A stretch of 64,000 nt of DNA, from positions 27,214 through 91,213 of the IMG/VR virus record IMGVR_UViG_3300043447_000250. One strand, given 5' to 3'. The position numbers and the translations under genes are program-made. The stretch comes from a virus. Taxonomy: Duplodnaviria; Caudoviricetes. The notes under the pieces are model-generated. The model worked only from the letters and a program-made list of their open reading frames with translations. It was not told the origin of the DNA and searched no databases. Of the stretch, positions 46,062 to 50,771 are shown one piece after another. How positions within the stretch are numbered: position 1 is the stretch's first letter; the number at the start of each line of letters is the position of its first letter.

Positions 46062-46099
46062 TTGCGGAGCAGTTTTACATCGTGCTCAGGATGTTTTAA

Positions 46100-47116
46100 T
46101 TATACCAGTTGCAAGGTGTTCTGCACAACTTTCAGCAGGCGATTCTTCTCTGCATTAATTGCAGGGTCAAATCCTGATGCACTTGCGAGGATAGATTCAT
46201 TATTTCCACCTCGTGCTGTGCGGTACCAATCAAGGCGTTCTGTAAGTGCATTAAAGGCTCCCCATGCGTTACCCGCAATCATGCCATTAAATTCACCTGT
46301 GTAGATATCGTTAATAACATCTACCTTGTTCTCCCACTTCTTGATTGCACCCTTAGTGTCCTTCTCAGGCTTAGGGTAAGCGGTTGTGATGATTTTATAG
46401 AAATCCTGTGCAGAGATTTCCTTTTCAATCATTGCATGAGCCATCTTATCAAACTCATCCATATAGAGATTAGCAAGACCCAAAGTCTGACGGGCTACTT
46501 GAATCTTACCCTCAGCGGTTTGAGTGTGACGAATCTTGAAAGATTGCTTAACGCCATCCTTCTTCTTAGTGCGAGAGAGCGCAAGGTTAAGTGTATTAGC
46601 ACACACAACACGAACAGGGGTGATTGATGCCTGAATAGCGATTGAGCCGTCATGTGATGTGTTAATGAGAAGATAAGTTTTAACCTTATCTGCAACACCG
46701 CTAGCATCTAGGACAGTTTCACGCTCAAGAGCAAGAGCGCCAAATACTACACGCCCACCCTTGATTGAGCCAGCAGTTTCCCAACGACCTCCACCGTCTA
46801 GGATGTTGTCACCAAATGAAAACAAATCTTCATTTTGTAGGGGGACATAACGCTGTCCAACAACACCCAAAACATCCGTTTGAGTTTCTGTTGTAGGGTT
46901 AGTACGAACTACATACTGATATTCCTTATCAGATGTAAGGTGAGCAGGGATAGGCATATCTTCAAGACGAACATTCCAATTGGAAAGGTTAGCAGCAGCC
47001 AACATTTCAGCAGTGGTTTTTTCTTCTGTAAAAACAGTACCCAATCCATGCCATGCGGGTTCACGGAAAGATGCAAAAGATGCTACGCCGTTTTGTGTTT
47101 CTAGGTCATGTGCCAT
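46100..47116 (-). CDS. DUF932 / phage-plasmid TIGR03299-like protein
   Basis: MAH...PAWHGLG, LGVVG.RY...QN, ETAGS..GG, NTSHDGS, RVVCANTL, HT. Confidence 0.88.
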   Translation of the reverse strand: MAHDLETQNGVASFASFREPAWHGLGTVFTEEKTTAEMLAAANLSNWNVRLEDMPIPAHLTSDKEYQYVVRTNPTTETQTDVLGVVGQRYVPLQNEDLFSFGDNILDGGGRWETAGSIKGGRVVFGALALERETVLDASGVADKVKTYLLINTSHDGSIAIQASITPVRVVCANTLNLALSRTKKKDGVKQSFKIRHTQTAEGKIQVARQTLGLANLYMDEFDKMAHAMIEKEISAQDFYKIITTAYPKPEKDTKGAIKKWENKVDVINDIYTGEFNGMIAGNAWGAFNALTERLDWYRTARGGNNESILASASGFDPAINAEKNRLLKVVQNTLQLV

Positions 47117-47345
47117 GAGTTTTCTCTTTTCTGTTTGTTGATAATTTAAGTATACATGGATGGTCTGACAAATGCAAATCAGGATAGTTAAATATGGGAT
47201 AAAACGGACATTCGTAAATGTGTTCCTGATCACTGTGTGATATTGGTCACAGGGCCCTCGGGGGCAAAAAATGAGCAGTTTACGTGGCCATGCTCAGGGC
47301 CCTTACCCAGTTTTTAGACGTCTGGTAGGTCCATATCATAGCCCC

Positions 47346-47774
47346 CTATGAAATCGTTTCTTCCCAATCTACATTGCGAGAATCAAAACTGAAATCATCA
47401 ATTGAATAATCAAACGCATCAACACTGTACTCAAGCGATGCGATTACATCGTCTGGGTCTGCATCAAGTGGAATTGTAACTTCAATTTCATAGTCAACGG
47501 TTCCAGTGATTGTGATTGTCTTGGTTAGTTCAAAATCGCAAATCTCTGAAAGTGATTCTGCAACTACTTGTGACATATCATCATTCTTTACACACGCAAT
47601 TACATATTCCTTAACCGTATTAGCAAGGTTACGCTGCTCTGAACGCATGGTTCCAATGACCTGTGACTTCTGTGAGACCTCATCTTGAAGTCTAGTTATA
47701 TAAGCATCCTTCTTCTCAATCATCTCAAGTAGGGCTGCTGCTTGGCGCTCTAGATAATCTGTTGTTGCTGACAT
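47346..47774 (-). CDS. hypothetical coiled-coil/acidic protein
   Basis: RBS gaggt; own promoter. Confidence 0.7.
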   Translation of the reverse strand: MSATTDYLERQAAALLEMIEKKDAYITRLQDEVSQKSQVIGTMRSEQRNLANTVKEYVIACVKNDDMSQVVAESLSEICDFELTKTITITGTVDYEIEVTIPLDADPDDVIASLEYSVDAFDYSIDDFSFDSRNVDWEETIS

Positions 47775-47921
47775 GGGGGCTACCTCTTTCGTTTGTTGTT
47801 TATATATCTAATTCTAGCCTAGGCCACTGACAAATTCAAATCCTGTGATCCATTTTGGCTACCCTTGCGGGGAGCAGTTTAGCCACTTGCTCAGGTGGTT
47901 TGTTATCCCCGTTATTGGGAA

Positions 47922-48323
47922 TTATAGGTACTGTGCTACTGTCTTGAAAGTTGAGGCATTTACAAACTCCTCATCAGTCATTTTGAGAATACGAATTGCG
48001 TTCTCAATTTCTTGGATTTCATAAGAACCCAACTCACGCTCTAGGTCAATGCTTGGCTTCTCAGGAAGTTTAACCGCACCATTAGGAAGTGTGATAGTTA
48101 CATTGACTTCATTACGCCAGTTCTCATGTGCAGAAACTTCTGCCTTTGCGATTTGCTTGAATACAATATCCGCAACTTCCTTAGCGTATGCCTTCTCTAC
48201 CTTTTCGTAGTCCTTGCGCTTCTTCTCGTTGTTAGTAATTGCAGACTTGCTATCTGCTAACTTTGTTTCTAGTGCGTTGATTACCTTAGTTGTTGCTACC
48301 TTAACTGAAATTGCTCTTGCCAT
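47922..48323 (-). CDS. hypothetical protein
   Basis: RBS aaagga; EIENAIRILKM motif. Confidence 0.75.
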   Translation of the reverse strand: MARAISVKVATTKVINALETKLADSKSAITNNEKKRKDYEKVEKAYAKEVADIVFKQIAKAEVSAHENWRNEVNVTITLPNGAVKLPEKPSIDLERELGSYEIQEIENAIRILKMTDEEFVNASTFKTVAQYL

Positions 48324-48435
48324 GTGGGGTATTTCCTTTTCTGTTAGTTGGGGGTTTTGAGTGAGCCTTTTTGCAACTTGCTCAGGTTGGTTCTCGCCAT
48401 TTATTTATAGTGGCTGTACGCTAGCCACTTGCTAA

Positions 48436-48600
48436 TTACTTAGCAGTCCAAGTTGTGTAGCGTGGTGAGCCATTTACATCTAACTTCACACGAACATTAC
48501 CATTAGCCTGTGGGATAATCTCTGAGATTGTTCCTGTAACCTTTGACTTCTGTGTTGTGTAGAGGTCGCCTACCTTGTATGTGTTTGTTGCTACTGCCAT
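48436..48600 (-). CDS. small SH3/KOW-like protein
   Basis: YKVGD...G.I..I...VRVKL. Confidence 0.65.
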   Translation of the reverse strand: MAVATNTYKVGDLYTTQKSKVTGTISEIIPQANGNVRVKLDVNGSPRYTTWTAK

Positions 48601-48955: not shown

Positions 48956-49204
48956 TTATTCGTCTTCGTCATTATCTACAAAGACATATAGTTTAAACAT
49001 CTCTTCATAGTTGCAAGAGTATTCCTCTACATCTCCATAGTCATTGCGGTATGTGATAGTGTAGTTGTCTCCAGTGGCATCGTCAACAATAGAGACTACC
49101 TCTACTACATCGTTATCAATATTAATTAAATCACCATCCATCAATTGGCTTGGTGCAAGTAAGTCTGCGTATACGAGTTCCATGTTGTTCATTGTAACAG
49201 TCAT
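48956..49204 (-). CDS. hypothetical protein
   Basis: RBS gagga. Confidence 0.65.
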   Translation of the reverse strand: MTVTMNNMELVYADLLAPSQLMDGDLINIDNDVVEVVSIVDDATGDNYTITYRNDYGDVEEYSCNYEEMFKLYVFVDNDEDE

Positions 49205-49337
49205 TTTTATTCCTCAATTCTATTCTTGTATTTAACTTTGCGAGTATACTTTTTCTTGCTAGGGATAGCAGTTGCAGCGTTGCTACGGCGTAGTTCTTGA
49301 ATACGGTTAACCTTATCTTTTATCATAGTCTTTATAC

Positions 49338-49682
49338 TCACACTTCACGCTCATAGTGTTCAGTTTCATTCATGGCTACGATGCATTCTTCACAATCGCA
49401 TTCCCATGAGTGTGGTACCCAGAAATCTAGGCGATGCTGTTCTACAATTGCTCTGGCAGGTGCCTGAGTATCTCCACGATAGAGAATCTGAAAGTCACCA
49501 ACCATAGGCATATCAATCATACGGTCATAGTCTTCGTCATAGTATGCGTCAATAGCCTCAATACAGGTTGGCACCATTTCTGAGGGTACAGGTGGATACA
49601 TATTACCTCTAAGGTGATAGAGAATCTGAGTCTCTAAGTCTAGTACGGTATCCTGAATTCCTAACGCTGTAACACTTCCCAT
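49338..49682 (-). CDS. hypothetical protein
   Basis: HLRGN.YPPVP, AIVEQHRL motifs. Confidence 0.7.
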   Translation of the reverse strand: MGSVTALGIQDTVLDLETQILYHLRGNMYPPVPSEMVPTCIEAIDAYYDEDYDRMIDMPMVGDFQILYRGDTQAPARAIVEQHRLDFWVPHSWECDCEECIVAMNETEHYEREV

Positions 49683-49816
49683 ATTAATTAACCTCGCAAT
49701 CGTGTCCTGAAACTAGTTCTAATGAATCAATAATGTCACTTGGATTAAGTCGTCTTGCACACTCTGGGCATTCATATACATAGCCTGCCCGTGTTGGAAT
49801 CAATAGCATTCCCATA

Positions 49817-50032
49817 TTACTTACCCCCTACATTTCCATTACGATAGAATATCTTGGTGTGCATTTTGCCATTAGGCTCTGATAGGTTAATTGTGCGGTA
49901 TTCATGTGCCCCGCCAATGTCAATGAAAGAATTATAGGCATTAACTGCCTCTAGTGCATTATCATAGCGACCTGTCCATGAGTAGTGTGGCTTGCCGTCA
50001 TATACTGAAGTTACTGCGTATTCATATTCCAT
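49817..50032 (-). CDS. hypothetical protein
   Basis: RBS ggagg. Confidence 0.65.
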   Translation of the reverse strand: MEYEYAVTSVYDGKPHYSWTGRYDNALEAVNAYNSFIDIGGAHEYRTINLSEPNGKMHTKIFYRNGNVGGK

Positions 50033-50370
50033 TACTTTGCCTCCGCTGTTAAAAATAGTTGGTCAATCTCATCTGAGTATTGCATAAGTTCTGCATACAT
50101 TTCAAGGGCACAATGGGGGCAGTAAATTTCAAGAGTATCTACTGAGTTTTCATTACAGTTCATGCATAGTTCCATAGGGGCTTCCTTCTTTCTGTTTAAT
50201 AATTTAATCTTACACTAGAGCGGGGACAAATTCAACTTTTCGTAAATTTTTTTTGCCCCAGAATATGTGAAAAAAATCACACTCACTTAATCCTTTTTTG
50301 ATCCCTATGGGGTGAGGGGGGTGAGAGCATGACCAGTCATAGGCTGGGGTACCTATGACCAGTCACACTA

Positions 50371-50571
50371 CTAGGCAGTAGTCTTTACTGCAACTGTTCT
50401 AAAAGAGGTGCGTATAGAGTGAGGGGACTTTACCTCAACTAGGTACGCCTCTGCACCCTCATACCAAATTGGCTTAGGGTGAGGTTCTGCACTTATGATT
50501 TCACCCTTTAGGGTGCGTGATACATATTGCTTACCAACTAGTAGGGACTGGACAGAGTATAGATTAGCCAT
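50371..50571 (-). CDS. hypothetical protein
   Basis: TTGATA-17-TAGTAT promoter, RBS gaagg. Confidence 0.65.
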   Translation of the reverse strand: MANLYSVQSLLVGKQYVSRTLKGEIISAEPHPKPIWYEGAEAYLVEVKSPHSIRTSFRTVAVKTTA

Positions 50572-50771
50572 GGGGCAACCTTCTTTCTTTAATTAACTTT
50601 ATATAACAATACTACATGATAGGGAAGAAAATATCAACTTACTAGCCAGTATTTTCATATAGTGAGACGCTCAACCAGTGTGATAAACCTCACATGGATC
50701 ACGACACGCCGTCAGCGCCGAGGGTCCTCGGGGCAAAAAAAGCAGTTTTTATTCTTGCTTAGGAATTTATT

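Follow-up and report, generated by a model that had tools for sequence, protein, structure and literature searches.

Structures that stabilise or process RNA 3' ends between genes include the RNase III sites of phage T7, repetitive extragenic palindromic (REP) elements and intrinsic terminator hairpins. RNAs can also be punctuated by tRNAs or end in tRNA-like folds, as in the mitochondrial punctuation model, the pseudoknotted acceptor arm of turnip yellow mosaic virus (TYMV) and the MALAT1 triple helix with its mascRNA, and the exonuclease-resistant RNAs (xrRNAs) of flaviviruses and plant viruses (coremin/xrRNA-C) block 5'-to-3' digestion by Xrn1 with a ring fold of 45-70 nt. Here we describe an H-type RNA pseudoknot of 27-29 nt that occurs exactly six times in a 64,000-nucleotide stretch of tailed-phage DNA (the window), the 3' 64 kb of the 91,213-bp IMG/VR virus record IMGVR_UViG_3300043447_000250, whose completeness is estimated at 83%. 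Judged from their sequences, all six belong to a single pseudoknot family that is very large and uncatalogued. Its genomic context suggests, with a probability that we put at about one half, that the knot is a self-contained boundary fold which caps and insulates the end of the upstream message in cis.

Comparison with described RNA elements

The -1 frameshift knots of luteoviruses and enamoviruses (beet western yellows virus, BWYV; pea enation mosaic virus 1, PEMV-1; sugarcane yellow leaf virus, ScYLV) resemble the phage knot in their size of about 28 nt, a first loop that starts with C, a single junction base, an A-rich third loop of 6-8 nt that would allow minor-groove triples, and a location 5-9 nt past the A-site codon of the ribosome. 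The phage knot likewise is a compact H-type fold, loop 1 being short and loop 3 A-rich; it differs in following a stop codon, with neither a slippery heptamer nor an overlapping -1 frame, and in occurring in DNA phages and bacteria, many times per genome and often ahead of tRNAs. Slippery heptamers at frameshift spacing were present at 10 of 192 copies (5%), compared with 2.5% of random positions, and at none of the six copies in the window. These counts, the lack of an overlapping -1 frame and the placement after stop codons argue against a stimulator of -1 frameshifting. The preQ1-I aptamer (RF00522) is likewise a very small H-type knot in which an A-rich 3' tail pairs into a hairpin loop. 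However, the phage knot has one variable base at the junction where the aptamer has a loop with a ligand-reading C, gives no match to Rfam, and is found not in the 5' untranslated regions (UTRs) of queuosine synthesis or transport genes but behind unrelated genes, such as DUF932, ArdA, SSB and capsid genes, and ahead of tRNAs.

Like the intergenic stabilisers and processing hairpins named above, the knot lies between cistrons on the sense strand, is proposed to protect the upstream end and in a subset of copies carries a U tract. It is, however, a sequence-conserved pseudoknot common to many phyla rather than a host- or phage-specific hairpin, and 81% of copies lack canonical terminator features. 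Compared with an intrinsic terminator, its nested stems are weak and a U tract is present at 19% of the family and at three of the six window copies; a consensus terminator scan called no terminator at any copy. With tRNA-like ends the knot shares a 3' strand that closes a stacked helix, a U at -1, a G-C first pair, an A behind the helix and frequent adjacency to real tRNAs. Unlike them it has no T-loop and is followed by CCA in a minority of copies only, and neither ARAGORN nor the Rfam tRNA model called it as a tRNA. The xrRNAs are similar in their compact knotted fold and in the mechanical stop of a processive nuclease that is proposed for the knot, which at 27 nt is of another size and topology. 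Type III antitoxin RNAs (ToxI, CptI, TenpI) were also rejected, as the copies are single and dispersed, one per intergenic gap, rather than in tandem; no toxin families were seen among the neighbours of the knot.

The original prediction had been unable to assign the element to a known family, and comparison with Rfam 15 agrees: there was no match at any of the six copies at gathering thresholds, nor at E <= 10 over 46000-50900. Rfam also gave no match at the copies in Staphylococcus aureus phage 80, phage B122, cyanophage S-RIM4 and Mycobacterium phage Labelle. Because our own model scores the window copies at 24-43 bits, an existing Rfam family of such shape would have surfaced. Motif-word and topic searches of the literature found no description of the knot, and it is not discussed in the main text of a 2023 survey of 10,006 viral candidate RNAs (PMC10690425), the supplement of which lay outside this search. 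The family is thus new in being absent from Rfam and from the literature searched, while the kinds of element to which it belongs, compact H-type pseudoknots and intergenic message-end elements, are known. Its breadth and its constancy of sequence over phyla are unusual.

Six copies of the knot in one phage genome

The copies in the window, all on the local coding strand, are as follows (scores from the covariance model described below).

Copy 1: 46067..46093, minus strand (46093->46067); 42.8 bits
Copy 2: 47273..47301, minus strand (47301->47273); 23.9 bits, loop 3 of 8 nt
Copy 3: 47872..47898, minus strand (47898->47872); 41.5 bits
Copy 4: 48363..48389, minus strand (48389->48363); 33.1 bits, variant tail AAAAAGGCUC
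Copy 5: 50740..50766, minus strand (50766->50740); 34.7 bits
Copy 6: 29168..29194, plus strand; 42.6 bits, stem 2 with a U-G wobble

All six are present at the places and on the strands originally predicted, as seen by pattern, by structure-aware scan and by covariance model. A strict pattern matched four times in the window, where 0.26 matches are expected by chance. The covariance model, proposed with the prediction as a check and built from 144 sequences, recovered only the six copies from the window; they score 23.9-42.8 bits, and the next-best match 13.8 bits. When the whole 91,213-bp record was scanned for structures in which stem 1 pairs, the six true copies and two tail-less matches were returned, and no true copy beyond the six. 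The phage collection searched held no close relatives of this phage, so there was no syntenic alignment to use.

Stem 1 differs in each of the six copies yet is always paired, as had been noticed at the outset. The compensatory change noticed in stem 2 is that of copy 5 (AAGCA/UGCUU, a compensated G-C to A-U double change) and the wobble is that of copy 6; in copy 4 the terminal pair of stem 2 is mismatched (A/G). Copies 1 to 6 begin 6, 44, 23, 46, 5 and 71 nt past a stop codon, which puts numbers on the predicted range of a few to about 70 nt on the transcribed strand. U runs stand directly 3' of copies 2, 5 and 6 only (U6, U7 and U4), in agreement with the observation that there is no consistent U tract.

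Three neighbouring features are needed to read these positions.

DUF932 gene, its stop ahead of copy 1: 46100..47233, minus strand; Pfam 7e-47
tRNA-Asp, directly 3' of copy 1: 45987..46061, minus strand
Extended -10 promoter-like site TGGTATAAT, a candidate read from the sequence: 29206..29214, plus strand

Copy 1 follows the stop of this DUF932 gene and ends 5 nt ahead of tRNA-Asp, copy 2 precedes the GTG of the DUF932 gene by 39 nt, and copy 4 precedes the next ATG by the same distance. Directly 3' of copy 3 is a CCC-GCAA-GGG hairpin. The promoter-like site downstream of copy 6 ends 7 nt ahead of an ATG at 29221, so the next gene is probably leaderless, and copy 6 would belong to the 3' end of the upstream unit rather than to a 5' UTR. 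Leaderless messages are common in Actinobacteria, and the leaderless reading fits the best matches of the window DUF932 protein, which lie in actinophages (52-54% identity to Streptomyces phages).

GCAA-tetraloop hairpins begin within or right behind the 3' strand of stem 2 at copies 1 and 3 (46057-46070 and 47862-47871, minus strand). In that of copy 1, GCUCC-GCAA-GGAGC, the leader is paired to the initial five bases of tRNA-Asp, so that stem 2 and the acceptor stem would both face competition from it. A second repeat follows tRNA-Asp and copies 2 and 5 (45925-45960, 47225-47272 and 50675-50739 of the window, minus strand); it is composed of a G+C-rich CCCCGAGG-type hairpin and then GGCCCTGTGAYC...GATCACA-like inverted words.

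Both stems covary in several hundred homologues

The knot has the layout NNNC-CU-GAGCA-N-GNNN-(2-4 nt)AAAC-UGCUC. Stem 1 consists of 4 bp that are free in sequence apart from an invariant closing C-G pair, and loop 1 is CU, its U invariant. Stem 2 has 5 bp, mostly GAGCA/UGCUC, and the junction is a single unpaired base that varies among A, U, C and G. Loop 3 is A-rich, 6-8 nt long and ends in AAAC, with an invariant AAA; as in other compact H-type knots, loop-stem triples are probable.

The covariation seen in the window holds in several hundred copies from IMG/VR contigs, genomes of GTDB and cultured phages, in which both stems covary strongly. An IMG/VR scan that used only the two conserved words, with stem 1 not a criterion, gave 143 matches at no fewer than 120 loci. 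Among these matches listed, stem 1 paired at all four positions in 97 and at three in 28, against about 2% by chance, with more than 50 distinct stem-1 sequences. Stem 2 was examined in a set whose membership depended on the skeleton and stem-1 pairing only: among the loci listed, 34 of the 39 copies with a non-canonical stem 2 paired at all five positions, compared with 0-1 in shuffles. At least nine Watson-Crick compensated types of stem 2 were found, for example AAGCA/UGCUU, GGGUA/UACCC, GGACA/UGUCC, GGCCA/UGGCC and AAAUA/UAUUU. In the 144-sequence alignment, where helix 1 is paired by construction and only helix 2 is informative, 99.7% of helix 2 is paired, and both partners change at four of its five pairs; its first pair is G-C in 131 of 143 sequences.

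Pairs of G with U, which fit RNA of this strand only, are present in both stems and the orientation to genes is fixed, which points to an RNA rather than a DNA structure. Taken singly, each stem is thermodynamically marginal (-2 to -7 kcal/mol, z-scores not significant); what is conserved is therefore the whole knot. Two other explanations for the conserved words were rejected. A palindrome or hairpin acting at the DNA level is ruled out by the variable spacing, the G-U pairs and the fixed orientation. A middle promoter with a MotA-box-like AAACTGCT and a -10 element at 12 nt finds a correctly placed -10 in copy 6 only, and leaves the covariation of stem 1 unexplained.

The knot is shared by phages of many hosts

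In GTDB, with one genome per species, the scan gave 120 matches listed at a minimum of 119 loci, of which 65 paired stem 1 at all four positions and 47 at three. These include Saccharibacteria (one a complete chromosome), Anaerolineae, Aminicenantes, Acidimicrobiia, Deltaproteobacteria, Lactobacillaceae, Nocardia, Segatella and others, and in two Methanobrevibacter contigs an oligo-T run stands immediately behind the knot. BLAST with two short queries of typical stem sequence located the knot in many cultured phages: the cyanophages S-RIM4, S-EIVl and A-HIS1, Mycobacterium phage Labelle, phages of Arthrobacter, Erwinia, Vibrio, Rhizobium, Paracoccus, Lentibacter, Moraxella and Bacillus megaterium, the Lactobacillus phages KC5a, Lj771 and mv4, and about 90 records of S. 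aureus phages. One typical copy found no match in E. coli genomes, a query that reaches near-identical stems only.

In the S. aureus phages one copy lies 9 nt past the stop of the minor-head gene and about 60 nt ahead of the scaffold gene, with the U tract CUUUUUAU directly behind the knot. A 44-nt block comprising knot and U tract (L249:1492-1535, S. aureus phage 80; H215-H235) is 93% identical across flanks that cannot be aligned, for example those of phiNM4, phage 96 and phiETA3; since the block is conserved where neither flanking gene is alignable, it sits at a junction of mosaic modules. Two S. aureus phage records annotate a BPROM 'promoter' across it. Labelle has a canonical knot (L245:2504-2530) 7 nt past the stop of gene 85, while no knot was found anywhere in the whole genome of its genus-mate, mycobacteriophage Patience, for which expression data are published; gain or loss is therefore recent inside one genus.

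Placement relative to genes, tRNAs and other RNAs

Placement was measured in 200 non-redundant copies with crude calls of open reading frames (ORFs). A same-strand ORF ends upstream in 167, and the distance from its stop to the knot has a sharp floor at 5 nt: 19, 19, 8, 9 and 9 copies begin 5, 6, 7, 8 and 9 nt past the stop, together 64 of 167 (38%), compared with two at 0-4 nt. In five of the 200 copies an ORF ends at a UGA within the knot. The downstream gene is convergent in 49 copies and the upstream gene divergent in 12, which ties the knot to gene ends rather than gene starts; where a gene does follow, the distance from knot to start has a floor near 19 nt. A U tract stands directly 3' of the knot in 19%, against a background of 6-8%, and canonical terminators were not enriched within 90 nt downstream. 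The upstream spacers are A-rich and G-poor. The base behind stem 2 is A in 71% and the sequence behind is ACCA in 11%; CCA follows 2.5% of the GTDB copies listed, and the CCA minority consists mostly of related loci ahead of tRNAs.

The genes ahead of tightly placed knots are diverse, with DUF932 genes at 17 of 100 and ArdA, SSB, DUF3768, DUF2958 and DUF4192 besides, a set that looks early and anti-defence-like; no shared partner gene or common class of flanking gene was found among the neighbours. In many loci the knot lies 4-14 nt ahead of a tRNA, and the order DUF932 gene, knot, tRNA-Asp, as in the window phage, recurs in many related IMG/VR contigs. In five loci it lies 1-2 nt ahead of a full-length Rfam DUF2800 RNA (RF02960; L031:257-445, L154:5404-5592, L172:5051-5236, L216:1598-1782 and L238:1-165), so this candidate cis-regulatory RNA often has the knot as its 5' neighbour.

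About 20 GTDB loci carry a conserved 20-aa mini-ORF with a good Shine-Dalgarno site and its UGA inside the knot (among them L142:1814-1876:+, L151:7517-7579:-, L158:2136-2198:-, L199:1639-1701:+, L219:1126-1188:+ and L230:1023-1085:+). Its consensus is M-K-R-[FY]-x-[IV]-P-R-x-A-H-C-[SD]-[ED]-G-C-x-x-x-S, with synonymous variation at third codon positions, and a second type starts MRWMFPHATHCS. Pfam and NCBIfam gave no significant match to the mini-ORF, one member having two weak sub-threshold matches to zinc ribbons. At several of the loci a hairpin that looks like a canonical terminator stands no more than about 40 nt further downstream. The flanking genes are ordinary chromosomal ones that share nothing.

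Discussion

If the knot is a boundary fold at message ends, it would be transcribed within the message and work in cis from a position just clear of the terminating ribosome. As known from frameshift spacers, when a stop codon occupies the ribosomal A site, a structure 5 nt beyond it lies at the mRNA entry. The 5-nt floor matches this geometry, suggesting that the knot is placed as near the gene end as it can be without being unwound. From there it would stop 3'-to-5' exonucleases, and probably scanning endonucleases too, and so give the upstream message a defined and stable 3' end. That end may be made by termination at a U tract right behind the knot, as at copies 2, 5 and 6, where knot and U tract may themselves be the terminator structure, or by processing downstream, for example by RNase P at the tRNA 5 nt behind copy 1. 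Towards its 3' side the knot would keep upstream sequence from disturbing the folding of a following tRNA or RNA and would stay just outside an initiating ribosome. The bias to gene ends, the enrichment of U tracts and the 4-14-nt tail expected from RNase P at a tRNA argue for a boundary fold. The original prediction had offered a broad list of functions, from which the context favours nuclease blocking, termination and processing; it argues against ligand sensing, because there are many copies per genome, behind unrelated genes and directly ahead of tRNAs.

Several observations weigh against a boundary fold. A knot of 9 bp is thermodynamically modest and may not stop RNase R or PNPase. Since 81% of copies lack a U tract and canonical terminators show no enrichment over the 90 nt downstream, an event that would form the end is not evident for most copies. 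Where the stop of the mini-ORF lies inside the knot, at about 20 bacterial loci, ribosomes must unfold it, and a 3' cap seems superfluous at those with a terminator-like hairpin no more than about 40 nt away. The knot precedes the highly expressed scaffold and capsid genes in S. aureus phages, a position that a role at the 5' side would fit equally.

Some of the same evidence can be read as transcription termination. The knot might be mainly a terminator or attenuator, in which stem 2 folds inside the RNA exit channel with the help of a stem 1 already formed, and polymerase is released or paused at the U tract that follows. The excess of U tracts over background, the runs behind copies 2, 5 and 6, CUUUUUAU in S. 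aureus phages and the oligo-T of the Methanobrevibacter copies are consistent with this, but four fifths of copies are not followed by a U tract, stem 2 has only 5 bp, and copies lie 4-14 nt ahead of tRNAs that must be co-transcribed or 20-40 nt ahead of the next start codon inside operons, which makes such a role unlikely. We consider equally doubtful that the knot is a processing signal punctuating polycistronic RNA, cut at or beside it by a universal RNase. Any partner would indeed have to be universal, since phages of most bacterial phyla carry the knot, as do two archaeal contigs, and RNase P is a candidate: the stacked stems would mimic an acceptor arm, with the invariant loop-1 U at -1, the nearly constant G-C first pair (131/143), a discriminator-like A behind stem 2 in 71% and ACCA in 11%, and knots that abut tRNAs. 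However, there is no equivalent of a T-loop, neither ARAGORN nor the Rfam tRNA model recognises the knot, ACCA is behind none of the six window copies, and CCA is found behind a minority only, mostly related pre-tRNA loci and 2.5% of the GTDB copies listed. It is quite improbable that the knot is a universal and protein-independent punctuation mark that either cleaves itself or, as a minimal mimic of a tRNA acceptor arm, is cut by RNase P where the U of loop 1 meets the first G of stem 2. If this were true, the mark would serve to divide polycistronic RNA into units in phages of almost every bacterial phylum, in some archaeal viruses and for a few cellular genes, comparable to the use of whole tRNAs in mitochondria.

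The spacing to the stop also admits a role with the ribosome: from the mRNA entry the knot would influence termination or recycling, or would prevent post-termination sliding and re-initiation and thereby uncouple the translation of neighbouring cistrons. The distance of 5-9 nt with its hard floor is the classic spacing between recoding site and pseudoknot, the floor near 19 nt to the next start lies just outside an initiating 30S subunit, and the architecture is that of the luteovirus frameshift knots. Yet slippery heptamers are at 5% against a background of 2.5%, no conserved frame runs through the knot, tRNAs or convergent genes lie behind many copies, four of the six window copies are 23-71 nt from the stop, and the 5-nt floor is equally explained by avoidance of unwinding; we regard this role as rather improbable. 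It is very unlikely that the knot instead shields the downstream RNA, becoming 5'-terminal after a cut in the A-rich spacer and hindering the 5'-end-dependent RNase E or RNase J. Although A-rich, G-poor spacers precede it, and tRNAs, the DUF2800 RNA and the S. aureus phage scaffold and capsid genes follow, its tie to the upstream stop is tighter than that to the downstream start, a convergent gene lies behind a quarter of copies, and a promoter-like site behind copy 6. Binding of a small ligand or of a dedicated protein, or self-cleavage as a very small ribozyme, might be expected from the invariant unpaired bases (CU of loop 1, AAA of loop 3) and the fixed junction, as in preQ1-I and small ribozymes, and from the dispersed multi-copy occurrence in phages that is typical of the latter. 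With no gene class common to the flanks and no partner gene evident, a one-base junction that leaves no preQ1-type pocket, and no match to any Rfam ribozyme or riboswitch model, this is to us the most improbable of the explanations weighed here.

Should the reading as a boundary fold be true, the knot would be among the most widely shared cis-acting RNA modules of tailed phages, as the same 27-nt fold in nearly the same sequence is found in cyanophages, actinophages, phages of Proteobacteria and Firmicutes, Saccharibacteria genomes and Methanobrevibacter contigs. Its hard floor of 5 nt past the stop is a natural ruler for how close a folded RNA may come to a terminating ribosome. Because the knot occurs in tractable phages (phiNM4-gamma4, phage 80 and Mycobacterium phage Labelle), its function is directly testable. 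A boundary fold of this kind would improve the annotation of phage genomes and would provide a portable, host-independent part to set message ends and insulate genes.

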